Source: a virus. From it: 20,783 nucleotides of DNA. Positions 1 through 20,719 of the stretch are shown here, one piece after another (the stretch's first letter is position 1; each line of letters starts with the position of its first letter). A model generated the notes under the pieces. It was not told where the DNA came from. It worked only from the letters and a program-made list of their open reading frames with translations, and searched no databases. The stretch is from the UHGV virus genome UHGV-0270338, one strand, 5' to 3'. The position numbers were made by a program, and so were the translations under genes.

Positions 1-244
1 CTGATGTCCGGCGGTGCTTTTGCCGTTACGCACCACCCCGTCAGTAGCTGAACAGGAGGGACAGCTGATAGAAACAGAAGCCACTGGAGCACCTCAAAAA
101 CACCATCATACACTAAATCAGTAAGTTGGCAGCATCACCCCCTGATTGTGTTCCCTTCAATTGATCTATTATTTTTATCAGTTATTTAGTATGCTTACCT
201 TATCAATTAAAGTTTCATAATTACAAAATTGGGTCAGTATATAA

Positions 245-1336
245 ATGAATAAAAGAAAAACGCTTTTCAATATACAAGCACTAAGGTTTATTGCTGCAGC
301 CATGGTGGTTTTGGCACATGCCGAACTTGGACAATATGGCATTGGGAATATCGAAATCCTTGCATCTCTGGGAGGATTTGGCGTTATTATATTTTTCATA
401 ATTAGTGGGTTTATTATACCTTACGTAGCATATGGTGGCTCTCAATCAGAAGGAGAATTCAAAATATCTGCAGGGAACTTTTTTATGCGAAGAGTAATAA
501 GAATAATCCCGGTATATGCTTTAATTACCGCCCTTTGCGTTCTATCAGCCTTCATAGTAAAACATTATATATCTTCCCCAACTCCACCTATTGCTTATTG
601 GTGGCCCGAAACAAAAATCAGTCTTCAATGGTATCTTGAGAGTATTACATTTACTCACTGGCATCGCGATGCAATTCTAAGTATAGGTTGGACATTACAA
701 CTTGAATTTTTGTTTTATACTTCTTTTGCATTTTTTATTGCTATCAAATTATCAAGGTTAGAGTATATAGAGATCTTATTTTTAACTATATCCATAGTAG
801 CTAATATTTTAACTTATCAAAATAACAGCATCATATTCGAAATTCTTCCGTTCATGAAAACACTGGCAAGACCAGAAATGGTCGTATTTGCTATGGGTAT
901 GTTTATGTATCGATTATACTTACTGGGCGCTATGTTAAAAAAAACAATTGCGCTTACAATATTAATTTTGTTTATTCCCACATTCTTATTATGTGAATAC
1001 TTTAATATTACAACAAACATGGGGGGGGAATGGCATCGTCCTTTGATATGGGGGTTTTTCGCTTTTTATGGTGTCTGGGCAGCGTTGAGCCTTGAAGGTA
1101 AAATAAAACCGGCTAAACTTATTATTTTCCTCGGTGATGCTTCATATAGTATATATTTGACGCATGGTTTGATTACAGCTTGGGTATCATATATGTTTGT
1201 GTCTTTCGGACTTATTGATTATTCCAATGTATTTCTATATATTGGAATATACTTTATAATAAGTTGTGCGCTTGGCAGCGTCATTCATATGTACATAGAA
1301 AAACCCATCGCAGAATTTTTAAAACGTTTTGTTTGA
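245..1336 (+). CDS. Acyltransferase family 3 integral membrane protein (O-antigen/LPS O-acetyltransferase-like cargo gene)
   Basis: 363 aa; N-terminus LRFIAAAMVVLAHA typical of acyltransferase-3; multiple hydrophobic segments; strongly AT-rich relative to flanking prophage DNA; sits distal to the tail-fibre genes where serotype-conversion cargo genes usually sit. Confidence 0.7.
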   Translation: MNKRKTLFNIQALRFIAAAMVVLAHAELGQYGIGNIEILASLGGFGVIIFFIISGFIIPYVAYGGSQSEGEFKISAGNFFMRRVIRIIPVYALITALCVLSAFIVKHYISSPTPPIAYWWPETKISLQWYLESITFTHWHRDAILSIGWTLQLEFLFYTSFAFFIAIKLSRLEYIEILFLTISIVANILTYQNNSIIFEILPFMKTLARPEMVVFAMGMFMYRLYLLGAMLKKTIALTILILFIPTFLLCEYFNITTNMGGEWHRPLIWGFFAFYGVWAALSLEGKIKPAKLIIFLGDASYSIYLTHGLITAWVSYMFVSFGLIDYSNVFLYIGIYFIISCALGSVIHMYIEKPIAEFLKRFV

Positions 1337-1388
1337 CCAAATGGTCATAACTACCCCCCTTAAAATACGAAAGTAAATAATTAGAACA

Positions 1389-1417
1389 TGTGCTTTGAGT
1401 TAAACACTCAAAGCACA
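1389..1417 (-). terminator. Perfect 11-bp stem hairpin (tgtgctttgag / ctcaaagcaca), probable terminator in convergent intergenic region
   Basis: Inverted repeat read directly; the T-rich run is on the minus-strand side, so more likely terminates the Tfa transcript than the acyltransferase. Confidence 0.35.
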
Positions 1418-1564
1418 AAATAAAAAGCGCTGCCATTGTCTATTTTGCCCCTTCTCACGCTCGTTTTTTATTTTATAATAATACACCTCCAGTTACACTT
1501 TTGTAATTAAAAGCATGAATCATCAATTAGTTCATCCCTTAATCTAACTCTTCCCCAAACGTTC

Positions 1565-2152
1565 CTATTCTGGTTCGGTGGGCCAGTTGATATTTGGCGC
1601 AGATGAAGTATCTATAGCCTGAATGGCTTTTATGTACTGCACCCACGCAATCAGACTTTCCTTATCCCCATCACTGATGATGTCCAGTCGCAATTCTGTC
1701 TGCCAGAGACTTATTTTCTCCTGCGCTTCAGCCAGTAACGCAGCCTTCTTCTGTTCAGCGGCTTCTACCTCGGCAACGTGCTGCGCGTCAGTATCTGTTA
1801 CCCACTTTTTGCCGTCCCACTTTTGATATGGTCCTGATGGCGCAACAGTTGTGTACCCCTTCCTGACTGGGCCGATATAATCTATAGTGGAAGATGAGGT
1901 ATCATCGGTAGAATATACCGTTTCACCACGATGATCTTCATCCTGTCGCCATCCGGTGCCCGTGAACATAAAAACCTTTCCAGCAACCATTTCACCTGGA
2001 TCAACATCTGTTGAATTACCCGGCATACTGACGCCAGCGTTAATATATTCATCTGACCAGCCAGCATATTCCATGGTCACTGCATCGTAATAAAAACAAC
2101 GAATATCACCGGCCTGCGTTGCCAGACCATTTTCATCAAAGACAGGTTTCAT
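1565..2152 (-). CDS. Phage tail fibre assembly protein (Tfa)
   Basis: 195 aa; EDHRGETVY, YQKWDGKKWV and C-terminal DTSSAPNINWPTEPE motifs match the Tfa family; start overlaps tail fibre stop by 1 nt. Confidence 0.7.
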   Translation of the reverse strand: MKPVFDENGLATQAGDIRCFYYDAVTMEYAGWSDEYINAGVSMPGNSTDVDPGEMVAGKVFMFTGTGWRQDEDHRGETVYSTDDTSSSTIDYIGPVRKGYTTVAPSGPYQKWDGKKWVTDTDAQHVAEVEAAEQKKAALLAEAQEKISLWQTELRLDIISDGDKESLIAWVQYIKAIQAIDTSSAPNINWPTEPE

Positions 2153-3234
2153 TACTTTGCCCTCACCAAGAAATTGAATGCGATGTTGCGCGGTCGGTTC
2201 TCGTTTGCAATTGATACCGATGGGTCTTTTCCAGCGCTGAAGAGAATACTTTGAGCAACAGTGCTTCCGCCTGGCTGGAGGTTCGTTAAGTTTTGTGCCC
2301 CCCCAGAATAAAGCGCACCAGAATTTGTAGTATTCCCAAAATATTGAACAAAACCGACTTCACCAGTGATATTTCGGATGGCATCCACCTGAGTACTCAG
2401 CAATGCCCTTCCTGAATCGACCCCACGACCATCATCCCAGATACGCGGGAATTCGCCTCGAGCTTCGGGAAGTGTAAGTCCAGGGAACACCTGTGCAAGT
2501 TTGGGGTATACCGCAGCAGAAAATGACGCGCCGTTAAATTTTAAAAACACCATGTCAGACCATTCGCTTATGACCGTATTCGGCATTGCTGCGGAGGGCC
2601 AGAAGAATGGGACACCGATAGCTGGCGCACCAGACCCCATCCCCACATCTGCTGGCGTTGGCTTATATTTTTCAGAAAAGAGCTTATACTTCCAAATCGT
2701 AGTGTTGCCGGTTACAGCACGAATGATTGGTGTTGCTCCAGCAGAATTTACTAGCGGAAGATAAATCTGCACTCGTTGTTTTGATACGGAATCATACAAC
2801 AACGTTAGCACCATTCCGTAATCAATCCCAAAATCCGGGTCTGTATTACCGCCGTATGCATAAAAACCAGAACTTGTTGCGCTCGAAAGCAAGTTAATGT
2901 TAGAACCAGCGATATTTATACCGATACCCAGGTCCGTTAAATCAAGGTTTTCGAGAGCCGTTTTCACCGTGCCATCCGATTTGATATCGCCAAATGGATT
3001 TTTGCGGCTTAACAGCAGAGCACGAAGCGCGGTAAGCAGCTGGTCGTGCCGCTCCTTCTCCAGGCTGGCACCGGATGCCTCCACCACGCTGCAAAGCTCT
3101 TCCTGCAACATGTCAAAGTAGTCATCATCCAGATCGGTGGCTGGCGTGCCGGTCTGGGGGTTACCACGGGTAAAACCGTTCTTACCCGCGCCGAACTTAT
3201 CCTTCTGCGCGGTTTTCGTGTCTATACGATGCAT
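2152..3234 (-). CDS. Phage tail fibre protein
   Basis: 360 aa; conserved tail-fibre N-terminal region and C-terminal ...[18 protein letters not shown] typical of side tail fibre tips; immediately upstream of Tfa. Confidence 0.65.
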
Positions 3235-3237
3235 GGA

Positions 3238-3822
3238 TTACTCCGGATATTTAAAAATTACGTAGGTATGCGACGGGCAGAGTTTGTTAAGCACACATTC
3301 GACAACGGTGTCGCCCCAGATACGCAGTGCGGAATCACAGGGATCGCCACATGTCATCCAGGTGGTGTTGGTGGCGGCTGGCATGTTGATCTGCCAGTAA
3401 TACCGCCATTCCGGCGCATTCACCGCGTCAGTACAGGCCGATGAGCAGGTGAACGTGCTTTTGTCGTATCGCGTGATGGTGGCATCTGGTCTGCCCAGGG
3501 CAGCAAGCTGTGCAAGATAAAAATCCTCGTTGATGCCACCCGACAGGTTAACCTTCGCATCCAGCCGTTGCTGGCGCTGGCGAAGGGTCTGTGTCCCTGT
3601 AGGAATACATTCATCCGGCAGGCCGCACAGACACTCCCAGCGGTTTATCAGTTCGGTGGTGGTGCGCGGATCCAGCTCCCGCATCAGGGCATCCGCACGC
3701 TGATGAACACGGGTTAATGACGGTGCCGCACCGGCAATCGCCGGATCGCTGGCTGACCACGCCGGACCGGGCGGCAGCAGTGCCGACAACAGACGGATGT
3801 AATCATCGTTTGTCACGTCCAT
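3238..3822 (-). CDS. YmfQ-like phage tail protein (DUF2313-type)
   Basis: 194 aa; position between baseplate J-like fragment and tail fibre as in e14/Mu-like tail modules. Confidence 0.55.
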
Positions 3823-4208
3823 GAAATCGTCCCCAGAACCGCCAGTTCATTTTTTGCAATGGAGATATTGTCCGCCGGTGCAAGCAACTGATGGCTGTAT
3901 TCCCCGTTCGCACCGGAAATCGCCTCACTGATACGCGATACCTTCAGTTCTCCCTGCGGATAACCATCACGCAGCAGGAACGAACGCAACTCCGCGGTAA
4001 TGGCAGCCCGTATTTCCGGTGTGTCCGGCGTCACGCGGATATGAAAATCCACTTTATGCGCCACCGGCCTGAATACATACAAATCAGAGCCTGCCACCGG
4101 GGCCAGTGGCTCAATGTGTTGTCTTGCCGCCGTTTCCGTTGATTCTTCCGGAATGGGATTAATCAGGTCACTGCTGGCAATCATCACACCGACAGTCCCC
4201 GTTCCCAT
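3813..4208 (-). pseudogene. Baseplate J-like protein, C-terminal fragment only (5'-truncated)
   Basis: 131 aa ORF resembling only the C-terminal part of baseplate J proteins; no upstream baseplate, tube or sheath genes; the upstream space is occupied by opposite-strand genes. Confidence 0.45.
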
Positions 4209-4258
4209 CCAGTGGCGGTAACCGACCTTGCAGGGTCGATATGATGAGGAGCAGCAAA

Positions 4259-4622
4259 ATGGCTAGCGAACGCAGTACTGATGTGCAGGCATTTATCGGG
4301 GAGCTGGACGGCGGCGTATTTGAAACCAAAAATCGGCGCAGTTCTCAGTGAAGTCGCTTCCGGTGTGATGAACACGAAAACCAAAGGTAAGGTCTCGCTC
4401 AACCTAGAAATCGAACCGTTTGATGAGAACCGAGTGAAAATCAAACACAAACTCTCATATGTTCGCCCGACTAACCGCGGGAAAATTTCCGAAGAAGACA
4501 CCACCGAAACGCCGATGTATGTCAATCGCGGTGGTCGCCTGACTATTCTGCAGGAAGACCAGGGACAGTTGCTGACTCTTGCCGGTGAACCTGACGGAAA
4601 ACTCCGCGCAGCAGGTCGTTAA
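4259..4622 (+). pseudogene. yfdP: yfdP-like gene interrupted by a frameshift in an A5 tract
   Basis: ATG at 4259 with strong SD (gaggag) opens a frame that stops after 30 codons; the 4281..4622 ORF continues in the adjacent frame; deleting one A from aaaaa (4328..4332) fuses them into about 120 aa. Confidence 0.45.
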
Positions 4623-4687
4623 TATCGTTTTTAATTAACTGATTATTTATCTCATCACTGAATATCTTTATATAGTGAGGACTTATT

Positions 4688-5512
4688 ATGTCTCAGAACT
4701 TAGACGCAACCGCAATTAATCAAATCCATGCCCTTATTTCTGCTCAGGGTGTTAATGAAATTATCAGTAAGATTGGTGCCGATGCTGTGGCATTGCCTGA
4801 GAATTTCCGCATTCATGATCTGGAAAAATTTAATTTAAATCGCTTCCGTTTCCGTGGTGCGCTTTCCACTGCCAGCATCGATGATTTTACCCGTTATTCT
4901 AAAGATCTTGCAGATGAAGGCACCCGCTGCTTTATCGATGCTGATAATATGCGTGCCGTCAGTGTGCTTAACCTAGGTACTATTGATGAACCAGGTCACG
5001 CAGATAACACCGCCACACTCAAACTGAAAAAGACAGCACCGTTCTCTGCTCTGTTGTCTGTTAACGGCGAGCGTAACTCCCAGAAGTCACTAGCAGAATG
5101 GATTGAAGACTGGGCCGACTATCTTGTGGGCTTTGATGCTAATGGTGACGCTATTCAGGCAACAAAAGCGGCTGCGGCTGTCCGTAAAATCACGATTGAA
5201 GCAAACCAGACCGCTGATTTTGAAGATAATGACTTCAGCGGCAAACGCTCCCTGATGGAGTCTGTCGAAGCGAAGACCAAAGACATTATGCCAGTGGCAT
5301 TTGAATTTAAATGCGTTCCGTTTGAAGGTCTGAAAGAACGTCCGTTTAAATTACGCCTCAGTATTATCACTGGCGATCGTCCTGTACTGGTTCTGCGCAT
5401 TATTCAGCTGGAGGCGGTGCAGGAAGAAATGGCTAACGAATTTCGTGATCTGCTTGTTGAGAAATTCAAGGACAGCAAAGTAGAAACCTTTATTGGTACT
5501 TTCACCGCCTGA
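4688..5512 (+). CDS. yfdQ: YfdQ-like DUF2303 prophage protein
   Basis: 274 aa, same length as KplE1 (CPS-53) YfdQ as I recall it; followed by yfdR/S/T-like genes in the same order. Confidence 0.65.
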
Positions 5513-5639
5513 TTTCATTACTGCAAATGCCCCTGCGGGGGCATTTATGGAAACGTAATTTACTCAATAATCGCCGGATGGTGAGGGATTCTTTTTACCA
5601 GAATTCAGCGCGGTGCAGCGCATATACGTGGAGAACAAA

Positions 5640-6176
5640 ATGTCATTTATTAAAACTTTTTCCGGGAAGCATTTTTATTATGACAGGATAAATAAAGACG
5701 ACATCGATATTAACGATATCGCGGTTTCCCTTTCAAATATCTGTCGCTTTGCCGGTCATCTTTCGCACTTCTACAGCGTCGCCCAACATGCGGTTCTTTG
5801 CAGCCAGCTGGTGCCGCAGGAATTTGCTTTTGAAGCGTTAATGCATGATGCAACAGAAGCGTATTGCCAGGACATTCCCGCACCACTGAAACGCCTTCTT
5901 CCTGACTATAAACAAATGGAAGAAAAAATAGACGCCGTAATCCGTGAGAAATACGGGTTACCCCCAGTTATGAGTACGCCCGTGAAATATGCCGATCTCA
6001 TCATGCTGGCAACCGAACGCCGCGATCTCGGGCTTGATGATGGCTCTTTCTGGCCTGTACTGGAAGGTATCCCGGCAACAGAGATGTTCAACGTGATTCC
6101 ACTGGCACCGGGCCATGCCTACGGGATGTTTATGGAACGCTTTAACGAGTTATCGGAGTTACGCAAATGCGCATGA
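5640..6176 (+). CDS. yfdR: YfdR-like HD-domain phosphohydrolase (5'-deoxynucleotidase family)
   Basis: Start moved to ATG 5640 (SD ggaga 5 nt upstream) giving 178 aa; HD-type motifs (HFYSVAQHA, LMHDATEAY). Confidence 0.65.
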   Translation: MSFIKTFSGKHFYYDRINKDDIDINDIAVSLSNICRFAGHLSHFYSVAQHAVLCSQLVPQEFAFEALMHDATEAYCQDIPAPLKRLLPDYKQMEEKIDAVIREKYGLPPVMSTPVKYADLIMLATERRDLGLDDGSFWPVLEGIPATEMFNVIPLAPGHAYGMFMERFNELSELRKCA

Positions 6177-6529
6177 ATGTTTTCGAAATGGAAGGGTTTC
6201 TTCGTGGGAGATGTGTACCGCGAGATCTGAAAGTAAATGAAACAGATGCTGAATACCTGGTGCGTAAATTCGATGCGCTTGAAGCTAAATGTGCAGCACA
6301 GGAAAACAAAGTAATACCAGTGTCAACTGAACTGCCACCAGCAAATGAAAGTGTTTTGTTATTCGATGCTAACGGAGAAGGCTGGCTAATTGGCTGGCGT
6401 TCTCTCTGGTACACCTGGGGACAAAAAGAAACCGGAGAATGGCAGTGGACATTTCAGGTCGGGGACCTTGAAAACGTCAATATCACTCACTGGGCAGTAA
6501 TGCCAAAAGCACCGGAGGCTGGAGCATAA
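6167..6529 (+). CDS. yfdS: YfdS-like (DUF551) prophage protein
   Basis: 120 aa; synteny after yfdR-like; start overlaps yfdR stop. Confidence 0.5.
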   Translation: MRMNVFEMEGFLRGRCVPRDLKVNETDAEYLVRKFDALEAKCAAQENKVIPVSTELPPANESVLLFDANGEGWLIGWRSLWYTWGQKETGEWQWTFQVGDLENVNITHWAVMPKAPEAGA

Positions 6530-6834
6530 TGACCACTTTTACCGACAAAGAACTGATTAAAGAAATTAAAGAGCGTATCAGCAGCCTTGACGTGCGAGAC
6601 GATATTGAGCGCCGTGCTTATGAAATCGCACTCCTATCTCTGGAAGTAGAACCAGATGAACGCGAAGCTTATGAATTATTCATGGAAAAGCGTTTCGGTG
6701 ACTTAGTAGATCGTCGGAGAGCAAAAAACGGCAATAACGAATACATGGCATGGGATATGACTCTCGGTTGGATCGTCTGGCAGCAACGAGCTGGTATCCA
6801 TTTTTCAACAATGTCACAGCAAGAGGTGAAATAA
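6529..6834 (+). CDS. yfdT: YfdT-like prophage protein
   Basis: 101 aa; synteny; overlaps neighbours by 1 nt on each side. Confidence 0.45.
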   Translation: MTTFTDKELIKEIKERISSLDVRDDIERRAYEIALLSLEVEPDEREAYELFMEKRFGDLVDRRRAKNGNNEYMAWDMTLGWIVWQQRAGIHFSTMSQQEVK

Positions 6835-7184
6835 TGGAGCCATACAGCCTCACACTCGATGAGGCCTGTCATTTTCTCAAGATATCCAGACCGACTGCCA
6901 TTAACTGGATACGCACAGGGCGTCTTCAGGCAACACGCAAAGATCCCACTAAGAATAAATCTCCTTACCTCACAACACGACAAGCCTGCATTGCGGCTCT
7001 TCAGTCTCCGCTGCATACTGTCCAGGTGAGCGCGGGTGATGGCATAACAGAGGAAAGAAAATGTCACTCTTCCGCAGAGGTGAAATATGGTACGCCAGTT
7101 TCACATTGCCGAACGGTAAAAGATTTAAACAGTCTCTTGGAACAAAGGACAAAAGGCAGGCGACAGAACTCCATGACAAGCTAA
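6834..7184 (+). CDS. xis: Excisionase (Xis), P22-type
   Basis: 116 aa from ATG 6834 (SD gaggtg upstream; TAATG overlap with yfdT stop); HTH-like [26 protein letters not shown]; 3' end overlaps int start as in lambdoid int-xis modules. Confidence 0.6.
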
Positions 7185-8224
7185 AGGCTGAAGCATGGCG
7201 GGTCAGCAAACTTGGTGAAATACCTGATATAACGTTCGAGGAAGCGTGTGTCAGGTGGCTTGAAGAGAAAGCACATAAAAAATCACTGGACGATGACAAA
7301 AGCCGGATCGGATTCTGGCTTCAACATTTCGCAGGAATGCAACTAAGAGACATTACTGAATCAAAAATTTATTCAGCAATGCAGAAAATGACGAACCGGC
7401 GTCATGAGGAAAACTGGAAACTCAGGGCAGAAGCATGCAGAAAAAAAGGGAAACCTGTTCCAGAATACACGCCAAAACCAGCGTCCGTTGCAACGAAGGC
7501 TACGCATCTTTCATTTATAAAGGCCCTACTAAGAGCCGCAGAGCGTGAATGGAAAATGCTGGATAAGGCACCAATTATTAAAGTGCCTCAACCAAAGAAT
7601 AAACGGATCCGCTGGCTGGAGCCCCATGAAGCACAAAGGCTGATTGATGAATGTCCGGAGCCATTAAAGTCTGTTGTTGAATTTGCACTGGCAACAGGCT
7701 TAAGACGCTCGAACATCATCAACCTTGAATGGCAACAAATAGATATGCAGCGCCGGGTGGCATGGATAAACCCGGAAGAGAGTAAATCAAACCGCGCAAT
7801 TGGCGTTGCGCTGAATGATACTGCATGTCGCGTATTGAAAAAACAAATCGGGAATCATCACCGTTGGGTATTTGTGTACAAGGAAAGCTGTACCAAACCA
7901 GACGGAACGAAAGCGCCAACAGTAAGGAAGATGCGGTATGACGCAAACACAGCCTGGAAAGCGGCGCTGAGACGGGCTGGTATTGATGATTTCAGATTTC
8001 ACGACTTGAGACACACCTGGGCAAGTTGGCTGGTTCAAGCCGGAGTCCCGTTGTCAGTTTTACAGGAAATGGGAGGCTGGGAGTCTATCGAAATGGTTCG
8101 TCGATATGCTCACCTTGCACCTAATCACCTTACCGAACACGCACGGCAAATAGACTCGATCCTGAATCCATCGGTCCCAAATTTGTCCCAGTCAAGAAAT
8201 AAGGAAGGTACTAATGATGTGTAA
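7061..8224 (+). CDS. int: Tyrosine integrase, P22-family-like
   Basis: 387 aa; catalytic signature ATGLRRSN (R), FHDLRHTWA (HxxR), VRRYAHL (Y); stop codon 2 nt before the tRNA-Thr-derived att repeat. Confidence 0.85.
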
Positions 8225-8225
8225 C

Positions 8226-8257
8226 TTATTGATTTTAATGGTGCCGATAATAGGAGT
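8226..8257. repeat. att repeat: displaced copy of the tRNA-Thr 3' end (19 nt) plus 11 nt of downstream flank
   Basis: ttattgatttt-aa-tggtgccgataataggagt matches 20628..20662 (ttattgatttt-cttga-tggtgccgataataggagt); the 19-nt part is the reverse complement of the tRNA 3' end ACTCCTATTATCGGCACCA. Confidence 0.85.
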
Positions 8258-8343: not shown

Positions 8344-9678
8344 ATGCGTTACAATCAATTTTCACATTACAAACGCTCCGACACTTTAGCCGGGGAGTTT
8401 ATGAGATACAAGCCCAATCAATACATAATCTGTGATTCTTACGGTAACTACTATTTACGGATCACGCTGCCTGTGTATATGCAGCCCTTTTTTGAAGGAA
8501 AAAGGACGTTTGTCAGGAGTCTGCACACAAGTAATCTTCGTGTTGCACGTAGAAAGCGTGATCAGATTGCAGATGAATACCATTGCTTACGGGAGAGTGT
8601 TGCCCCTGTAAACAGCACAATAGAGAACACGCTGGAACTGTTACGCAGTAAGGCTAAATACGCCAAAACAGCTACCAGAATGCAAGATACAGCGTCTTCG
8701 TGTCCGTCATTGCTTAAAATTCTTGAAATCTACCTGACAATTAACAGCACGAAGAAGAAGCCAGCCACTTTAGCTAAGGCAAGAAAAGCGGTAGAGATGT
8801 TTCTCTCCTACCGTAAAAAGCCTGATATTGCATTGCAAGATGTAAGCCGCACCACTGTTACAGGCTGGATTGAACACATGCAAAAAACCCTTTCACAACA
8901 ATCAATTGCAAATTATATCAGCCCAATGGCCCAGCTATGGGAGTTAGCTTCATCACGTTACCACGATGCGCCAGAAAGGGCGCTCTCCCCCTGGCGAGGG
9001 CATAGGCTTGATGTGGCACAAAGTAGAGAGAGCTACGAGGCATTTTCTAACAAAGAGCTATTGCAGGTGTTGCAAGTATTTTCCGGTAATTCAGCAGAAA
9101 ACAAAGAAATGATGGCTTTGTGTCTTATCGGTGCTTATACAGGTATGCGGATCAATGAGATAGCAAGTCTCACAATAGACGATGTGAAAGAGATCGAAGG
9201 TGTGCTGTGTTTTGAAATCACACAGGGAAAAACGAAAGCTGCGGCGCGTGTTGTGCCTGTACATAGCCTTATCACTCCGTTGGTGTTGTCGCTGCGTGAA
9301 AAGCCTCATAATGGCTTTTTGTTCTATCACGCCAGCATCACAGAACGTGCTGATGGTAAACGTTCCACGTGGCACACGCAGAGATTTACAAGAGCTAAAC
9401 GAAAGGCTTTAGGGGAAAAGGGAACAGAAAGGAAAGTGTTTCATTCTCTGAGACACGGAGTAGCACAGCTTCTTGATCGAAATCAAATTCCAGAAGACAG
9501 GATCGCCCTTCTCCTGGGCCATACACGCGGCAATACAGAGACATTCCGCACATATAGCAAGAATGCAGCTTCTCCAGTAGAGCTTAAAAAATATATTGAG
9601 CTTCTACGCTACCCTGAAATAGAGAAAGGCTTATCAATCAATAAAAAATCAAATTTAAGGCGTAAAACAACGCCATAG
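8344..9678 (+). CDS. Tyrosine integrase of the second element
   Basis: 444 aa (alternative start ATG 8401 with ggggag SD gives 425 aa); motifs TGMRINEIASL (R), FHSLRHGVAQLL (HxxR), LLGHTRGN...FRTYSK (H, Y); unrelated in sequence to the upstream int. Confidence 0.8.
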   Translation: MRYNQFSHYKRSDTLAGEFMRYKPNQYIICDSYGNYYLRITLPVYMQPFFEGKRTFVRSLHTSNLRVARRKRDQIADEYHCLRESVAPVNSTIENTLELLRSKAKYAKTATRMQDTASSCPSLLKILEIYLTINSTKKKPATLAKARKAVEMFLSYRKKPDIALQDVSRTTVTGWIEHMQKTLSQQSIANYISPMAQLWELASSRYHDAPERALSPWRGHRLDVAQSRESYEAFSNKELLQVLQVFSGNSAENKEMMALCLIGAYTGMRINEIASLTIDDVKEIEGVLCFEITQGKTKAAARVVPVHSLITPLVLSLREKPHNGFLFYHASITERADGKRSTWHTQRFTRAKRKALGEKGTERKVFHSLRHGVAQLLDRNQIPEDRIALLLGHTRGNTETFRTYSKNAASPVELKKYIELLRYPEIEKGLSINKKSNLRRKTTP

Positions 9679-9759: not shown

Positions 9760-10473
9760 CTATTCCTGTTTAAAGGCAGGAGTAATAGTGTCTTCACCTT
9801 CACTACTTGATTTTTCAGTGTTAACACGTTTTTTCATATTAGCCCCGATGTTCTTAGATGGCTGTGTTTTGATAGCTACAGTGTTTACAGTGCCATAAGA
9901 AACGAGCCTGATCTGCTCAAAGCTAAGATCAAATACTAGGGATTCGCTTGCCTCTTCTGTGTATTCGATGCCTGTTAAAACAACGTTCTCAAAAGTTTTA
10001 TTTTCTGTAACAAGAAGAAAAGGCTGTCTACTGTCCATAATCTGATTCAGATAATCAATCGCTAATGATCTTCTGTTCCCGTTCACCCCTGCACTCTTTA
10101 ACAAGCCAGGATCGCTTTTAATCGGTGTTTCAGTGATCCTTCCTTTAAGAGAAAACTTATTGTTTTTAATTTGAACGTGATCCGATACATTAGCACCATT
10201 TTCTACGGGGTAGCTTGTAACATCTGCCGAACGTCTCACGTTCACATCGTCAACACTGTCAAAGGCCAGTGCCATATAATTTTCATAAACGTCATTACCA
10301 GAAGATGCCAGCCCACTGGTAACAATAGCAAATCCATTTTCTCCTTTTGTTTTATTGGCTTTGCTATTTTCGTTTTTTGTAGAGTTTATATCTTGTTCTG
10401 CTTTGTAAACAGCCTGAACGTGTTGTTCTGGAGTATTTGCTGCACGTATGGTTAAAATCCCGGCGGTCGCCAT
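9760..10473 (-). CDS. Hypothetical protein, last gene of the structural-like operon
   Basis: 237 aa ORF, Ser/Thr/Asn-rich; no recognisable motif. Confidence 0.45.
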   Translation of the reverse strand: MATAGILTIRAANTPEQHVQAVYKAEQDINSTKNENSKANKTKGENGFAIVTSGLASSGNDVYENYMALAFDSVDDVNVRRSADVTSYPVENGANVSDHVQIKNNKFSLKGRITETPIKSDPGLLKSAGVNGNRRSLAIDYLNQIMDSRQPFLLVTENKTFENVVLTGIEYTEEASESLVFDLSFEQIRLVSYGTVNTVAIKTQPSKNIGANMKKRVNTEKSSSEGEDTITPAFKQE

Positions 10474-10506: not shown

Positions 10507-12345
10507 TTACCCGCCGTTGGATTGTCCTGATAAGCTGGTTAATGTTAATGATTTCAAGAAGCTATCCCGACTTGCTCTCGCTGTAAAATCCACATAATCG
10601 CTTAATCTGGATGTGTCAGAATTAATAGTAAGAGGAACTTCTGTTACCACTTCAAATGTAGGATTCAGATTAAACACAGGAGATAAATTATAAGCCGGAG
10701 TTGTCATTGCAAGATTATTTAAAGCACCCTGTTTGAGATTGGTTATCGGTGCTTCGCTGACTGACATTTTTACATCTGACACAGAAGAAGCATTATCATC
10801 GAAAAGCAATCCCTTAAGAGTGTTAAAGAAAGAATGACTATTATCAGGTGTAGTTGTTGCAGTGCCAGCGCCTTTATATTGGTCAGGAACGAGCTTAGAA
10901 AGATGCTGTTTCATCCCTTCATTGCTTAATGGCGGTGCATCTCCCATATTTTTCTGAATAGCATCTGTCTTATCATCATTACGATTAAACCAGTTTACAA
11001 TCTTCATAATGGCTTCAAAAAGACTTCCTGACGCTTCTCCTAGCCTTGTAAAATACGGAGTGAGATTAGAAAGGTTTTTCATAAACTCTTCCGTTACTTT
11101 TGGATCGAGAGATTTCATAAAGCCGTCTACGAATGCTACTTGTCTTGCATCAGAAAGCTGTGAAAGCTGTCTGTTTAGTTCTCTGAATTTAACAATAGAG
11201 TCTTGCTGTGTTTCTGTTAGCCATTTTCCAGAGGCTTTTTGCTGATTAATACTTTCTTGTACATCTTTAACGGAACGTTGCCAATATTTTGACGTAAGCA
11301 TCAAATCATCGCCCAGGTCTTCTAAACGTTGTCCAATTTGGGAGTCTGAAAACCCTTTTTTCATCATTCCATTAACAGCCTTAGAAATTAATCCGGCTGG
11401 ATTATCAGCAAATTTTTTAAGGTCGCTCTTGTTAATAACACCGATGTTTAGAAGTTCATTAATAGCGTTATCACCGCCTTTCCATTCGCCGCCTTTACCA
11501 GTTTTTTTATCGACTACATATTCAGCTTCACTATAGGATTTTGCGGCACGTTCCCTAACATCTTTCATCTGATCCAGGTATTTCCTAGCCCCTTGATCAC
11601 CCATCATAGAGTCAACGCCGTTTCTATAGGCCCATTCTGTAATGTTGTACATCTGGTTAACGTCTACACCGCCAAGCCTTGCACGTTGAATTAGCTCACC
11701 TTGTGTCTCTGCGTTAGCGAAACTGTTACTAACAAACTCCGACGCTTTACTAACAGCCATCACGCCAGCAGCCGCTGTAGCGCCTCCAAATAACAGAGCA
11801 CCCATCGTGGCGGAATTCCCTGATCCTCCTCCCTTAACGGGGGCTAATTGAGCTTTTCTGTTGCCATTAATCTTACGTTGTTGCTGTTGTAGGCGTTTCA
11901 TCTGACTATTCATACGTGCAAGCGAGATAGCCCCTTGCTCATATTGTTTTGCTATCTCTCTAGCCTGTGCAATAGCTTTGTATTGTTCCGCTACAGAGAG
12001 GCGGTGCATTGCACTGATAGAGCTTGACACATCAAGGAGTTTTAATTCTGCTTTCTCTTTACGTGCTGCTATTTGTTGCTGTTGCCTTGCCTGTGCTCTT
12101 GCTGCGGCAGCTTGTGCTCTTTGATTTTGTTTTTCGGTTTTAGCTTTCTGTTGAGCAATCTTATCTACTTCACTTTGTGCTTTCTTATAGCCTTTAGTGA
12201 CATTATCAAACCTTAATTTAGCGGGCTTGATGTTTTCTGCGAATTCCTTTAAGCCTGTAATAGAGTCTTTCGCTTTTTTCAAGCTGTCTTTATCTACACT
12301 AAATGTTACTGTGTTCTTAATTTTAGAAGTGTTAATTTCTAACAT
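10507..12345 (-). CDS. Coiled-coil protein with Gly/Ala-rich hydrophobic segment (tape-measure-like or scaffold-like)
   Basis: 612 aa; N-terminal Q/A/K/R-rich helical region (AQAAAARAQARQQQQIAARKEKAELK), then GGGSGNSATMGALLFGGATAAAGVMAV; no Walker A or other catalytic motif seen. Confidence 0.5.
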   Translation of the reverse strand: MLEINTSKIKNTVTFSVDKDSLKKAKDSITGLKEFAENIKPAKLRFDNVTKGYKKAQSEVDKIAQQKAKTEKQNQRAQAAAARAQARQQQQIAARKEKAELKLLDVSSSISAMHRLSVAEQYKAIAQAREIAKQYEQGAISLARMNSQMKRLQQQQRKINGNRKAQLAPVKGGGSGNSATMGALLFGGATAAAGVMAVSKASEFVSNSFANAETQGELIQRARLGGVDVNQMYNITEWAYRNGVDSMMGDQGARKYLDQMKDVRERAAKSYSEAEYVVDKKTGKGGEWKGGDNAINELLNIGVINKSDLKKFADNPAGLISKAVNGMMKKGFSDSQIGQRLEDLGDDLMLTSKYWQRSVKDVQESINQQKASGKWLTETQQDSIVKFRELNRQLSQLSDARQVAFVDGFMKSLDPKVTEEFMKNLSNLTPYFTRLGEASGSLFEAIMKIVNWFNRNDDKTDAIQKNMGDAPPLSNEGMKQHLSKLVPDQYKGAGTATTTPDNSHSFFNTLKGLLFDDNASSVSDVKMSVSEAPITNLKQGALNNLAMTTPAYNLSPVFNLNPTFEVVTEVPLTINSDTSRLSDYVDFTARASRDSFLKSLTLTSLSGQSNGG

Positions 12346-12649: not shown

Positions 12650-13678
12650 TTATTTAACAGTGATTTGAACGGAGAAGCCTACACCGTGGTTTACAACCAT
12701 CTGGCTATTCTCTGTAACAACGTTAACAGCATCACCACGAGAAGATTCATAGCTATAGCTGTACACCTCAGCAGGAGCGGCATTAATCAGTTCAAAGGTG
12801 CTGGAAGCAGCCCCGTAGATGTTCTGATATACATTAGAGCCTTTAGCAAACTTCGGAACCGCTACAGCGTCTGCGGTCATATGTGCAAGGTGTAGCGGAT
12901 CTACCAGTTTAATAACATCAATGTTAGTTCCTGGAATAGTGAACGCTGTCACCCCCGGTAGCAGGTCACGACGCTGGTACACAACATTTCCCTCTTCCAG
13001 TGGGCTTACATACTGGAATGCGTTTGCCATACCCGCAGAGAATCGAATTGCAGAGAAGGCTTCCGGCTTACAGAAAACAACAATACGCTCTACAGCAGCC
13101 GCCTGGCTTTGTGCTTTCTCGATAATGTCAGTAGCAATCTGATCAAATTCTTTAAAAATCTTCGTGGTGTCAGTGCTGGAGGCGTTAACAGTGGCTTTCA
13201 TAGGTGTCACATTAAACAGCTTGCCCCACTCGATAAGAACATCATCAGTTTTCGGGGTGTAGGTGCGACCACTAAACAGAGAAGCAGCCAATACGCTCTC
13301 TTTTGTACGCTGATACGCTACGTGGTGTTTAGCAACATAGTCAGCATAGATATCAGTGAGTGTTTCCTGAAAATCAGTGCCAGGCTTACGCTTGCCTTGC
13401 ACGTCCTGCGGTTTGATCAGGTCTTGCCTTAAAAAGTACGGGATTTCAATAAGATATTCTTTACCTTGTTCTCGCTTAGTAACGTTGTGTTCAGAAGAGA
13501 AACGAGAGGTTTCTTTGTTGAACAGAGATTCGTTGCTTTCGACAAGCTGGGAAACAGCTACTTTATGAGATGTAACCCCTACAGAATCCGTAAAATCAAG
13601 AGTAGAGAGCAGATAGTTTCTAGTGCTATGAGCCTGGAAAAGCGGAGCTAAATCAACGTAATCATTACCTAGAATCAT
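12650..13678 (-). CDS. Putative HK97-fold major capsid-like protein
   Basis: 342 aa; segment RIVVFCKPEAFSAI...MANAFQYVSPLEEGN resembles, from memory, the conserved region of podovirus T7 gp10-type capsid proteins; followed by a strong terminator as is typical for a major structural gene; no signal peptide. Confidence 0.45.
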   Translation of the reverse strand: MILGNDYVDLAPLFQAHSTRNYLLSTLDFTDSVGVTSHKVAVSQLVESNESLFNKETSRFSSEHNVTKREQGKEYLIEIPYFLRQDLIKPQDVQGKRKPGTDFQETLTDIYADYVAKHHVAYQRTKESVLAASLFSGRTYTPKTDDVLIEWGKLFNVTPMKATVNASSTDTTKIFKEFDQIATDIIEKAQSQAAAVERIVVFCKPEAFSAIRFSAGMANAFQYVSPLEEGNVVYQRRDLLPGVTAFTIPGTNIDVIKLVDPLHLAHMTADAVAVPKFAKGSNVYQNIYGAASSTFELINAAPAEVYSYSYESSRGDAVNVVTENSQMVVNHGVGFSVQITVK

Positions 13679-15772: not shown

Positions 15773-16429
15773 TTAAAATGGAATATCAAAGTCATCATAC
15801 ACATTTGGGTAATGCTTAGAAAAATATGCCTCAATACCATTTGGTAGCTTTAACCTGTGCTTATAGGCTAACGATGTTGCAAATTCTATAAATGATGCTC
15901 CTCCTGTTCTTTTGTCTTTCTTCTGGATGATAAGAGAGGCAAAATTCTCTAACACATCCTCCTCATTATCATTAGCTACCTTTTCACTTGATGAAACAGG
16001 TGTTTCTTCCGTCTCCCACGGTAAAGGCGTATCCCAATCATCATCAAGAACATCAAAAGAAGACTCTTTATTATCTTCCGTAGGGGGAAGCTGATCAGGA
16101 ACAGCTTTAACAGTAGCTTCTTGTTGTGTCTGGGCTTCTTGTCTAGCTTCTTCTTGTGGAATATCTACCACTTGATAGACATTAGAACTTCCTGGTCGTG
16201 CATCTTTTATAATTAATCCCATTTCGAGCAATTTCTTAACCCTTTCCTCTGCTGCTCTTGGTGTTATGCCAAAAACATCGCCTATCTTAGCGTAAGAGGG
16301 AAATGCACGATCAAACCCTTTCAGATAGCAGTAAAGGTTTTTAGCACTATCTGTAAATTTATGCCCGTTTACTTGGCTTATTTTTAGAATCCACATAGGA
16401 ACTTTTACAAATTGTTCTTCATTAATCAT
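15773..16429 (-). CDS. Winged-helix DNA-binding protein with acidic linker and SSB-C-terminal-tip-like tail (candidate replication initiator / host replisome recruiter)
   Basis: 218 aa; N-terminal HTH-like segment (FPSYAKIGDVFGITPRAAEERVKKLLEMGLI); long D/E/Q-rich linker; C-terminus ...YDDFDIPF, close to the E. coli SSB tip DDDIPF. Confidence 0.55.
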   Translation of the reverse strand: MINEEQFVKVPMWILKISQVNGHKFTDSAKNLYCYLKGFDRAFPSYAKIGDVFGITPRAAEERVKKLLEMGLIIKDARPGSSNVYQVVDIPQEEARQEAQTQQEATVKAVPDQLPPTEDNKESSFDVLDDDWDTPLPWETEETPVSSSEKVANDNEEDVLENFASLIIQKKDKRTGGASFIEFATSLAYKHRLKLPNGIEAYFSKHYPNVYDDFDIPF

Positions 16430-16853: not shown

Positions 16854-17616
16854 AAAAAACTCCTTATTCAGTTAAAAGAAATAAAACACCTTGCAAGCCT
16901 GACGGCTTCAAAGTGCATTGATTTTGATTATTTAGAGAAGAATGTTTTTCTGTCCCTCTAATACCTATTATTACATATAAAGAAACATTTGTCAATACCT
17001 TTTCATAAAAAATCTGATCTTTTTCATGCACTTACATTTTTTCTTAGCTATTCGTGCTCTTCTGTGTAGTGCTATTCTTCATTATCCGCTAAAACGCTCT
17101 AAAACGCGTTCTAACGAGATTTTGATAAAAGCAATACATTGCCTTATCTAATGGCTGTTTAGCTCGCCAGAGGCTTATTTAAGGGGCTTATTTTGTATTT
17201 GTTAGGTATATGAAAAGGTAATGGTAAATATAAAACAGAGAGTCACTTTATAAAACGCTCTGTAAAGACCTGTAGTGAGCTTATTATATGTAGGCAATGC
17301 GTTTCCATTCCCTACCCTGCTTAATGCTGTTAGAGAAGCATTTAGACCCCTTATTTTTAATTACCTAAAGTATCCTCTATACATCTCTGTTATGAAACAC
17401 CTCTGAATCCTTCATAAAACACATTATGACGCAAAGAACACTTTTCTAAGGTGATTCCCTTCCTGAACTCTGTTTCTTGCGTCAGAGAGCTACAGAGAGC
17501 TTATAAAGCTATTATTAATAATAAAGTAGATAAAGTAAGTAAGATAACTAAGATAGATAAGATTAATAAGATCAGAATTCTCTTTCGGTGTCGCCTCTGG
17601 CTTTTCCACCGAAAAC

Positions 17617-17740
17617 AATTACACGACTACAGAATGTGGAAGTGGAATTGTATTGAGGCTTAGTGAAATTACACGAGGAAAGCAGAGTGTAATTGAGCTT
17701 TAGCCGCTCTCTCTTCGAGTAATTACACAACTACAGAGAA
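17617..17740. repeat. Array of AATTACAC-containing repeats, including palindrome AATTACAC-N12-GTGTAATT (17667..17694)
   Basis: aattacacgactacaga (17617) and aattacacaactacaga (17721) are near-identical 17-mers; perfect 8-bp inverted repeat between them. Confidence 0.5.
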
Positions 17741-17995
17741 TAACGAGAGTTATTAAATGTAGGAGGGTAATTAAGAGTTAGAGAGAGTTAACACGTAAGC
17801 AATCAGTATGATTGGTTAGGTGATTACTCTTCTGCGCACAGCGCAATAGTATTTCTTCGTGGGCGTTACCGCCACGATAGTTACACGAAGAAAGTAACGC
17901 TTTGCTTTCGGTGTGAGCGGAACGGGCCAGCCAACGTAGCCCGAAAGGTAGCGGAGTAAGGCTGCTTGCCAGAGAGTGAAGCTAACGCCGGAAGG

Positions 17996-18180
17996 CAAAA
18001 GATCATATAAATAAATATATAATATTATAATTTAATAAGTAATTTAATAAATGATCTAATAGGTAACAGAATTCTGTGGGGGTGTCTAACAGAATTCTGT
18101 TAGGGTGGGGTAACAGAATTTTGTTAGGGTACAAATCTCTTTAAAAGTTAAGATTAACAGAATTCTGTGGGGGTAGCTCA
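17996..18180. promoter_or_regulatory. Origin-like region: roughly 65 bp of almost pure A/T followed by four iterons TAACAGAATT(C/T)TGTnnGGGT
   Basis: Iterons at 18064, 18087, 18111, 18155 (spacing 23, 24, 44 bp); each contains the palindrome ACAGAATTCTGT; no ORF support. Confidence 0.55.
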
Positions 18181-18224
18181 CAGTGACCTACCGTTACTAC
18201 CAATCATCACATAGCACTCACTCT

Positions 18225-18700
18225 GTGTAATGCCTTTCTATGTGTGTGCCATAATCCCCTATATTCCCTGTGTAAATCATAGAATAATGCTCTCTATTCC
18301 CTGTGTAATTCCCTACTAAAAAATCCAATGAAAAATGGCTTCAAAGTGCAATGTTAGCTTTCTTCACTTTTACATCACTTTCGCAAAGCCTTGTGTAATG
18401 CGGTTTACAGAGCACCATCAGAAATTGTTGGCTAAAAATTGTTCTGCTTGTTTCTGAACGAGTTTTCTCGTTTGTGCAAATTTTAAAATTTATTTTGTTT
18501 TTACAGCCTTATTTCGTGTAATGCGTGGCATAGCAAGCCCTTTTCTTGTGTTGTCAAGACATTTGGCAACGTTCAAACATCTGTTTAGAAATGCCAAATT
18601 GTTGATCTAACAAATAAACCTGTATAAACAGAACACCATTTAATCTATCCCCCTGTGTATCCATTAGGCATACCAAATGAATACATCTAAATCGTGTAAT
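18225..18700. repeat. Dispersed same-orientation GTGTAAT heptad motifs (about 6 copies) upstream of the serine recombinase gene
   Basis: Copies near 18225, 18269, 18302, 18392, 18517, 18694; two share the longer context tattccctgtgtaa(a)t; opposite orientation to the ATTACAC copies left of the iterons. Confidence 0.45.
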
Positions 18701-18793
18701 ATTCCGTACCCATAAGGCTTGAAACAGACCAAATGAATACGATATACTCATTTGCATTGAAGTAGTGCCAAATCGATACATTAAGAGGATTTT

Positions 18794-19333
18794 ATGAGCA
18801 ATATCGGCTATAAGCGTGTGAGCACTGTAGATCAGAACACTGATCGCCAGCTTGCAGGAGTAACGCTTGATAAAGTCTTTGAAGATAAGCTGTCAGGTAA
18901 AGACACTAACCGTCCAGGATTGCAGGCGTGTTTATCCTATCTGAGAGAAGGCGACACCTTACACGTGCACTCTCTCGACCGTTTAGGACGTAACACCTTA
19001 GACATCCTTGCTTTAGTTGAACAACTTAATAATCGAGGTGTGATTGTTCGATTTCACAAAGAAGGAATCATTGCAGACATTACAAGCGCGATGGGAAAAA
19101 TGATGCTTACTATGTTGTCGGCAGTTGCAACGTGTGAACGTGAACTGATGTTAGAGCGTAAACGAGAAGCGCAAGCCGTCAATCCTACAAAGCGTGGTAA
19201 AGGTAAAGCAGTAGATAGGGAAGGTATAAAGAAAGCCCTTTCCGCTGGCGTGTCAGTGCGTAAAACCGCCGAGAGCTTTAATGTTGCTCCTTCAACGGTG
19301 CAACGTATCAAGAAGGAAGAAGAGGAGGCGTAA
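18794..19333 (+). CDS. Small serine recombinase (resolvase/invertase family)
   Basis: 179 aa; N-terminal YKRVSTVDQNTDRQ with catalytic Ser; GKMMLTMLSAVATCERE resolvase core; C-terminal HTH (VSVRKTAESFNVAPSTVQRIKK). Confidence 0.8.
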   Translation: MSNIGYKRVSTVDQNTDRQLAGVTLDKVFEDKLSGKDTNRPGLQACLSYLREGDTLHVHSLDRLGRNTLDILALVEQLNNRGVIVRFHKEGIIADITSAMGKMMLTMLSAVATCERELMLERKREAQAVNPTKRGKGKAVDREGIKKALSAGVSVRKTAESFNVAPSTVQRIKKEEEEA

Positions 19334-20627: not shown

Positions 20628-20662
20628 TTATTGATTTTCTTGATGGTGCCGATAATAGGAGT
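20628..20662. repeat. att repeat at the intact tRNA-Thr 3' end (right boundary of the second element)
   Basis: Matches 8226..8257 apart from a 2 vs 5 nt spacer difference. Confidence 0.85.
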
Positions 20663-20719
20663 CGAACCTACGACCTTCGCATTACGAATGCGCTGCTCTA
20701 CCAACTGAGCTATATCGGC
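20644..20719 (-). tRNA. thrW: tRNA-Thr (anticodon CGU)
   Basis: Reverse complement reads GCCGATATAGCTCAGTTGGTAGAGCAGCGCATTCGTAATGCGAAGGTCGTAGGTTCGACTCCTATTATCGGCACCA: 76 nt, cloverleaf-compatible, anticodon loop CGT, encoded CCA. Confidence 0.9.

Follow-up and report, generated by a model that had tools for sequence, protein, structure and literature searches.

We analysed by computation a 20,783-nucleotide stretch of the virus genome UHGV-0270338 (the window), in which a preliminary description made from the letters of the DNA had placed a probable replication origin of a mobile element at 17996-18180. The site lies in a 12.4-kb integrative island that also encodes a candidate initiator, Rep. 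Its left part is 90.8% A+T over 65 nucleotides (17996-18060), as the description of nearly pure A/T over about 65 bp had it, and the 55 nucleotides from 17997, at 94.5% A+T, are the only stretch of that length in the window to reach 90%. We took 17997-18058 (91-94% A+T, unique in the window) as the presumed DNA unwinding element. To its right lie four 20-bp repeats of one type, called type A here, with the consensus TAACAGAATT(C/T)TGTnnGGGT: iteron 1 (TAACAGAATTCTGTGGGGGT, 18064-18083), iteron 2 (TAACAGAATTCTGTTAGGGT, 18087-18106), iteron 3 (TAACAGAATTTTGTTAGGGT, 18111-18130) and iteron 4 (TAACAGAATTCTGTGGGGGT, 18155-18174). Their starts are 23, 24 and 44 bp apart, which agrees with the spacing of about two helical turns that had been described. 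The palindrome ACAGAATTCTGT, which had been ascribed to every repeat, is exact in three of the four, and iteron 3 departs from it by one C>T change.

A search for the repeat core TAACAGAATTCTGT with up to two mismatches gave eight strand-matches, every one of them at the four iterons, on both strands; 0.28 were expected by chance, and none of 100 shuffles reached eight. The 1.94 kb around the site (16854-18793) holds only short open reading frames (ORFs) of 52-75 amino acids, mostly with GTG or TTG starts, and no gene is annotated across the corresponding stretch of a RefSeq relative that is 99.3% identical, in keeping with the earlier view that these 1.9 kb contain no credible ORF. Searches with Rfam, at gathering and at permissive thresholds, returned just the transfer RNA (tRNA) and chance microRNA matches on the palindromes. 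The 2-kb region and the iteron array had no meaningful match in phage records, and in plasmid records the region gave two partial matches only, one of them to a mislabelled chromosome. A scan of IMG/VR for paired type-A palindromes recovered only copies of this same element and unrelated high-GC contigs.

Rep and the type of its array

The candidate initiator, Rep, is a 218-residue winged-helix protein encoded on the minus strand at 15773-16429, which we assigned from PHROG matches and a modular alignment. Its N-terminal winged helix (about residues 1-95) is of type A and is connected by a linker to a conserved C-terminal domain that ends in ...VYDDFDIPF; the PHROG matches are to family 270, 'replication initiation protein' (E=3.8e-11), and to family 391, 'O-like' (E=2.4e-8). 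A candidate sigma-70-like promoter on the minus strand (16967-16995; TTGACA-17-AATAAT with an extended TG, an 11/12 match, and a match to the consensus only) is placed for a leftward operon of Rep and structural genes. The ribbon-helix-helix protein that had also been ascribed to the element was not confirmed by Pfam.

Homologues of Rep have a near-invariant C-terminal half, and their N-terminal winged helices fall into five discrete, mutually dissimilar types. For every type we retrieved loci and compared what follows the AT-rich block on its right side; an automated pass covered the 150 nucleotides after the block in 32 loci (about 22 distinct). The array beside the block was of the type cognate to the Rep N-terminus in all 32. 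The cognate repeat cores are TAACAGAATTCTGT for type A (that of the window), TATCAATATTGATA for type B, GTTCACAGTGAACT for type C, GTAACGTATCGTTAC for type D and GGAACTCATTTCC for type E; all five are palindromic, with a spacer rich in G or in C after those of types A-C. The related loci carry 2-5 iteron copies, and an AT-rich block of 50-91 bp with at least 90% A+T occupies the same place in 28 of the 32 loci (in L046-L049 it is 88% A+T). Type E was recognized first as a protein type, and its loci then proved, as predicted, to have a new repeat, GGAACTCATTTCCTAGGTAGGTA, at the expected place; the two lineages in which this type occurs have different Rep C-termini and different flanking DNA.

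Within this stretch, column-wise conservation revealed three variable islands only: the Rep N-terminus (about 16055-16400), the iteron array (18005-18200), and the gene for a serine recombinase along with the DNA immediately upstream. From Rep to the array, the non-coding sequence is 93-100% conserved, above the coding genes. Comparison over 2 kb with the nearest relative gave 13 differences, of which 11 are at 18093-18187. Such a pattern is consistent with joint evolution of a protein and its binding sites, and suggests that between otherwise similar elements the Rep N-domain moves as one module with the origin. Many loci keep one to several non-cognate units further to the right of the array, which we read as relics of earlier cassette exchanges. 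By comparison with the type-C and type-D arrays, the window itself has at 18174-18201 one type-C unit, TAGCTCACAGTGACCTACC, and after it half a unit resembling type D, CGTTACTACC; the copy that forms iteron 4 survives, too, as a single relic in the type-B loci and several of type C. Five loci (L005, L030, L032, L022 and L042) have what appear to be nested origins, with a cognate array, another AT-rich block and, beyond it, arrays that belong to as many as three other types; they read like the trace of cassettes inserted one after another.

The co-variation of Rep with the array, the AT-rich block and the initiator-like protein are together best explained if 17997-18180 is the iteron-type vegetative replication origin of the 12.4-kb element, bound by Rep, and on this sequence evidence we consider that likely. 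The same co-variation bears on a different function, in which the array would serve the small serine recombinase for recombination (as a res site) or the terminase of a helper phage for packaging (as a pac/cos site). The recombinase gene is indeed only 620 bp to the right, and an element that depends on a helper and encodes no terminase needs a packaging signal somewhere. The array type tracks the Rep N-terminus, however, and not the recombinase; in the type-C loci L005-L007 the iterons are still there with no recombinase gene called; and the likely recombinase sites are other repeats, CCAAATGAATAC, at 18669-18740, directly upstream of the recombinase gene. A packaging signal should, moreover, match the helper, whereas the array has no phage match. 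We therefore regard a res or packaging function as extremely unlikely.

Phage chimeras that carry Rep N-domains

One homologue of Rep, P0013 (327 residues), lies on a phage contig of about 150 kb and has relatives in the phages BI-EHEC, Mt1B1_P17, muut and inny, all members of the Stephanstirmvirinae. These proteins are chimeras, in which a near-identical Rep N-domain and linker are followed by a type-E-like winged helix and a MUG113/T5orf172 domain. The N-domain is of type A in BI-EHEC and in gp053 of Mt1B1_P17 (L014:20722-21708), of type B in muut_154 (L038:1399-2397) and of type D in inny_184 (L039:1438-2541). The first 118 or so residues of P0013, the metagenomic chimera, are about 99% identical to type-A Rep; gp053 is about 97% identical to it over residues 1-83 and 82% over 119 residues; and by alignment the N-domains of muut_154 and inny_184 are near-identical to those of type-B and type-D Rep, respectively. 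All are joined to the constant part at one fixed point, …QLPPTE/WKMFKKW… (the slash marks the junction). The second winged helix, in the constant part, is 81-93% identical to the type-E Rep N-domain, and the C-terminus matches MUG113 (PF13455; 22.6 bits against a cut-off of 22.3), T5orf172 (E=0.025) and PHROG 681 'endonuclease' (E=1.6e-18).

A precedent exists in phage ICP1, whose nuclease Odn has an N-terminus that mimics the origin-binding domain of RepA from PLE, a satellite in Vibrio cholerae; cleavage of the PLE origin by Odn was shown by experiment to be iteron-dependent, and PLE escapes it through exchange of the replicon module or change of the iterons (PMC8263062). By analogy, the chimeras are probably origin-directed nucleases with two captured specificities. 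That a phage nuclease copies the binding domain would be independent support for the array being essential to the element. The full-length chimera gene was present in 6 records (4 phages) among 50,697 records, and no type-C chimera was found among the phages in the collection. One type-C Rep cluster, P0118, is among the clusters with the highest number of contigs (518).

The chimera could instead be the initiator or activator of the helper phage itself, its domain being copied by the satellite so that the satellite origin is fired by the helper or along with it. In that case the site remains an origin, but the idea of an arms race between phage and satellite fails. Such a role would suit the position of the phage gene, which heads an early rightward operon with helicase and nucleotide-metabolism genes, and the two O-like winged helices of its product. 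It does not suit the C-terminus, which matches GIY-YIG-type nuclease families, nor the phage DNA. In the 150 kb of Mt1B1_P17, the only chimera phage genome examined, we found no type-A or type-E (GGAACTCATTTCC) iteron with up to one mismatch and no iteron cluster of any type; the E' variant GGAAATCATTTCC gave two isolated one-mismatch matches. The rarity of the full-length gene points to an accessory and not a core replication gene, and the N-domain alleles track the satellite types A, B and D near-identically at one fixed junction, which fits repeated capture from satellites. A helper initiator is thus very unlikely.

Several results weigh against an origin at 17997-18180, and some of them favour a reading in which the array consists of operators only and the winged-helix protein is a transcription factor, the array controlling a nearby promoter. 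Pfam gave only helix-turn-helix hits below the curated cut-offs for Rep (HTH_36 at 19.9 bits, with a cut-off of 25), a profile search of solved structures returned generic winged-helix regulators only, of the MarR/SlyA type (E about 0.02), and RefSeq names the protein a 'transcriptional regulator'. Palindromic sites are typical of operators, and in the unrelated high-GC phage contigs pairs of ACAGAATTCTGT stand beside genes and are operator-like there. No DnaA box (TTATCCACA, up to one mismatch) is present within 16860-18790, DnaA boxes and integration host factor (IHF) sites being common, not universal, in iteron-type origins. The iterons are 1.6 kb from the rep gene, unlike those of lambda, which lie inside the O gene; the AlphaFold model of Rep, built from an alignment of mixed types, is too poor to use (pLDDT 50.6); the 32 loci are largely close relatives, so that the number of independent exchange events is well below 32; and the assignment of the chimeras as nucleases draws on weak-to-moderate profile matches.

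Operators would nevertheless be hard to reconcile with the layout of the locus. A consensus scan found no sigma-70-like promoter at or beside the array, and the distances to the starts of the closest genes are 620 bp and 1.2 kb. The phased copies, four or five of them, adjoin an AT-rich block of 50-91 bp in every case, the PHROG matches of Rep are to initiators, and Rep has a conserved C-terminal domain that does not bind DNA and has an end like the tail of a protein, SSB, that binds single-stranded DNA. That a phage nuclease should copy the binding domain also makes more sense for a site which the satellite cannot do without. We consider operators unlikely, and the iteron-origin architecture of a mobile element, as first described, gains strong support from both the matching of five array types to Rep N-domains over the 32 loci and the apparent fusion of the same domains to a nuclease in phages.

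The probable satellite island and its non-coding DNA

The island is bounded by an exact 20-bp direct repeat, ATGGTGCCGATAATAGGAGT. The left copy, attL (8238-8257), forms its left end, and the right copy (20643-20662) is attR, the 3' end of a tRNA-Thr (CGT) gene on the minus strand (20643-20719; ARAGORN, Rfam and the direct repeat), which forms its right end. A tyrosine integrase of 444 residues is encoded at 8344-9678 on the plus strand (Pfam Phage_integrase, E=2.9e-17, and DUF6538; PHROG 1 integrase). Three structural genes follow on the minus strand: a Dit-like tail protein of 237 residues (9760-10473; Pfam Dit_like, E=1.5e-29), which is 56% identical to gp134 of Phapecoctavirus Mt1B1_P17; a tape-measure-like protein of 612 residues (10507-12345; PHROG 16051 tape measure, E=1.3e-53), whose identity to gp135, the tape measure of Mt1B1_P17, is 29-42%; and a lambda-E-type major capsid protein of 342 residues (12650-13678; Pfam Phage_cap_E, E=2.3e-14), 22% identical over its full length to gp145. 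The small serine recombinase, of the resolvase/invertase type (179 residues; 18794-19333, plus strand; Pfam Resolvase, E=1.1e-33; PHROG 125, E=6.3e-55), possibly resolves multimers. The remaining content is several small ORFs, and there is no helicase, primase or polymerase gene.

Mt1B1_P17 is a 151-kb lytic myovirus of the Stephanstirmvirinae. Because its structural proteins are homologous to gp134, gp135 and gp145 of this phage, the best reading of the island, as far as homology goes, is that it is a satellite and that its helpers are phAPEC8- and phi92-like lytic phages. It has no portal, terminase, sheath or tube genes, despite its own diverged copies of the Dit-like, tape-measure and capsid genes, which suggests that the satellite remodels head size and tail length or tail tip. 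To our knowledge, a comparable combination of Dit-like, tape-measure and capsid genes is not known in the described satellite families. A literature search found no description of this family; one elsewhere is possible.

Of 5,426 complete E. coli genomes, 719 contain the 2-kb non-coding region or some part of it, and 439 contain its central 446 nucleotides, among them ATCC 8739, whose copy may be truncated, so that about 8-13% of complete E. coli genomes carry a member of the family. Related islands occupy various tRNA genes. One scan of species-representative genomes gave a single relative, in an Escherichia sp., and the family seems confined to Escherichia. To the left of the satellite, positions 1-8237 of the window are a prophage remnant with genes for an acyltransferase, tail-fibre assembly, a Mu Gp48-like protein, a truncated baseplate-J protein and DUF2303. 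The remnant's own DUF6538-type integrase gene (7061-8224) ends 14 bp before the satellite attL, and the two elements appear to be integrated in tandem at tRNA-Thr.

Directly left of the AT-rich block is a conserved segment of about 430 nucleotides (17570-17995, plus strand) with very strong folding potential. As plus-strand RNA, the 446 nucleotides 17560-18005 fold at -163.9 kcal/mol (z=-8.2), as minus-strand RNA at -130.1 kcal/mol (z=-5.5), which favours the plus strand by 34 kcal/mol; as single-stranded DNA the plus strand has z=-8.4. The flanking non-coding stretches reach z=-2.3 and -1.4 only. The segment is 94-100% conserved across relatives, and no Rfam match, promoter or terminator was found in it. 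Within the lineage of the window there are no compensatory pairs, the sequences being too similar, and the few stem substitutions are compatible with plus-strand wobble pairs. Strong folding (z=-6.1) was seen as well for a sister lineage's diverged counterpart, which has three compensatory pairs (from what is one two-clade comparison) and modular gain and loss of hairpins. In both lineages the consensus fold is better in the orientation toward the AT-rich block (-144.8 versus -118.9 and -66.3 versus -55.6), and, read on the other strand, 6-11% of the paired cells would be mismatched. A structured RNA ending at the origin is one possibility for the segment, a DNA structure for priming another. 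We compared the site also with RNA-primed or transcription-activated origins (RNA II of ColE1, the primary origin of T7), where a transcript entering the origin serves to prime or activate it; observed here were a strong fold that ends at the AT-rich block, with the strand toward the origin favoured, and no promoter or terminator.

Further repeat-like sequences lie in the same DNA. At the 5' end of the folding segment, GATCAGAATTCTCT (17570-17583) resembles a type-A iteron with three mismatches; it is probably not a Rep site, because it is invariant in loci of all Rep types and because of its place at the end of that segment. Five copies of GTGTAAT, all on the plus strand, lie at 18225-18700 and mirror four within 17618-17728, three of which are on the minus strand. 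Nine of the 11 copies in the window are thus within 17618-18700; 2.8 are expected for the whole window, and none of 100 shuffles reached 11. The left copies are inside predicted hairpins, and in these copies the sister lineage has TTGCAC where this lineage has TTACAC. We considered these repeats as DnaA-like boxes and rejected them on their sequence. Directly upstream of the serine recombinase gene (18669-18790) are CCAAAT(G/C)(A/G)ATAC repeats, one of them within an inverted repeat, which are candidate recombinase binding (res) sites. The recombinase gene and this upstream stretch have 60-75% column identity and are far more variable than the other non-coding DNA.

A proposed replication scheme and its relation to known systems

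The C-terminal domain of Rep is acidic, and its end, D-F-D-(I/L)-P-F, is invariant across Rep types. In the window these residues (encoded at 15773-15799; ...VYDDFDIPF) resemble the C-terminal tail of SSB, MDFDDDIPF, and the SSB of the helper phage, gp116, carries PMDFDDDIPF. Rep of the sister lineage, with an unrelated C-terminal domain, ends similarly in IYDSLPF or IYDSIPF. The C-terminal hexapeptide of SSB, DDDIPF, is a contact point for many replication proteins (PMC5872125).

We propose that Rep dimers would bind the four palindromic 20-bp iterons through the N-terminal domain, and that the resulting nucleoprotein complex would melt the adjacent 60-bp AT-rich block. The conserved acidic C-terminus of Rep might then recruit host or helper-phage replisome proteins, a step suggested by the fact that the element encodes no helicase, primase or polymerase; our hypothesis, drawn from the likeness of the two tails, is that Rep recruits proteins of the host or the helper that bind SSB tails. 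Since the element has an initiator and an origin without these enzymes, and looks like a satellite of lytic phages, its replication is probably dependent on the host or the helper and triggered thereby. Autonomous replication after excision, as had been suggested, is therefore unlikely in the strict sense. The origin would also be the target of an arms race, in which phages of the Stephanstirmvirinae carry putative nucleases directed at the origin and the satellites would get away by exchanging Rep N-domain and iteron array jointly, old arrays staying behind as relics.

In its fullest form the picture is a tentative one, and we hold it with some doubt. It is of a contested origin in a seemingly undescribed satellite family that parasitises phAPEC8- and phi92-like phages, with satellites that rotate among at least five Rep N-domain/iteron cassettes and with phages that respond by nucleases carrying two captured domains in tandem. 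The 430-nucleotide segment would be, maybe, a new structured RNA or a primosome-assembly DNA structure in origin firing, and the tail of Rep may recruit PriA, DnaG or phage replisome proteins.

The closest parallel is PLE and the ICP1 nuclease Odn (Barth et al. 2021, eLife, PMC8263062). PLE, too, is a satellite of a large lytic myovirus; its origin, with semi-palindromic iterons, is found within a long non-coding region, its iteron array varies between otherwise near-identical elements, and the N-terminal domain of its initiator is exchanged together with the origin as a module. Odn, like the proteins described here, is a phage chimera of an initiator DNA-binding domain and a T5orf172/GIY-YIG-type nuclease. 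The two systems differ in that the PLE initiator is of the RepA_N family, whereas Rep is an O-like HTH_36 winged helix; in having two specificity types in PLE and five here; and in the likeness of the phage domain to that of the satellite, which is 42% identity for Odn and up to about 99% here. Here the chimeras carry a tandem pair of satellite-type binding domains, relic non-cognate arrays are retained, and the host is Escherichia with Phapecoctavirus and Justusliebigvirus phages. The PLE/ICP1 system differs also in how it is known, the present one being known from sequence computation alone. Since Rep has no match to RepA_N, and has an HTH_36/O-like winged helix instead, we regard the system as an analogue of PLE and not as a member of its family.

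The layout of the site is also that of the lambda origin. There, four phased palindromic iterons of about 19-20 bp lie beside an AT-rich block of about 40-60 bp. Rep has a remote PHROG similarity to O-like proteins and shares with lambda O the division into a DNA-binding domain at the N-terminus, which varies from one lambdoid phage to another, and a C-terminal domain that makes protein contacts. Unlike in lambda, the origin is 1.6 kb from the initiator gene and not inside it, and there is no P-like helicase loader; Rep has no match to Pfam Phage_rep_O (PF04492), and its C-terminus, with the SSB-tail-like end, is unrelated to that of O. The theta plasmid origins of pSC101, R6K, P1 and RSF1010 have in common with the site direct initiator repeats beside an AT-rich unwinding element and a cognate initiator in cis. 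They differ from it in that no DnaA boxes were found here, in that each repeat is palindromic, which suggests binding by a dimer, and in that the element is integrated and probably replicates only after induction. Rep is not of the RepA/pi WH1-WH2 family, as far as that can be tested.

The origin itself is thus of a known sort, an iteron origin in a PLE-like modular replicon. What is possibly of wider interest is the apparently undescribed satellite family around it, with its five matched cassettes, the putative two-headed nucleases and the structured segment at the origin. The SSB-tail-like end of Rep and the folding segment each suggest a way to start replication without a helicase or primase of one's own, and the matched DNA-binding domains and 14-bp palindromes would make a natural library of orthogonal protein-DNA specificities. 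Phages of the Stephanstirmvirinae are discussed as therapy candidates in published papers; since they are the helper group, the carriage of the island by about 8-13% of complete E. coli genomes could affect phage efficacy. If confirmed, the system would be the E. coli counterpart of PLE and ICP1 in Vibrio, with a satellite, a defined origin, a modular initiator and a phage counter-weapon against that origin, and would provide a second, richer and genetically tractable case of the arms race between Odn and PLE.

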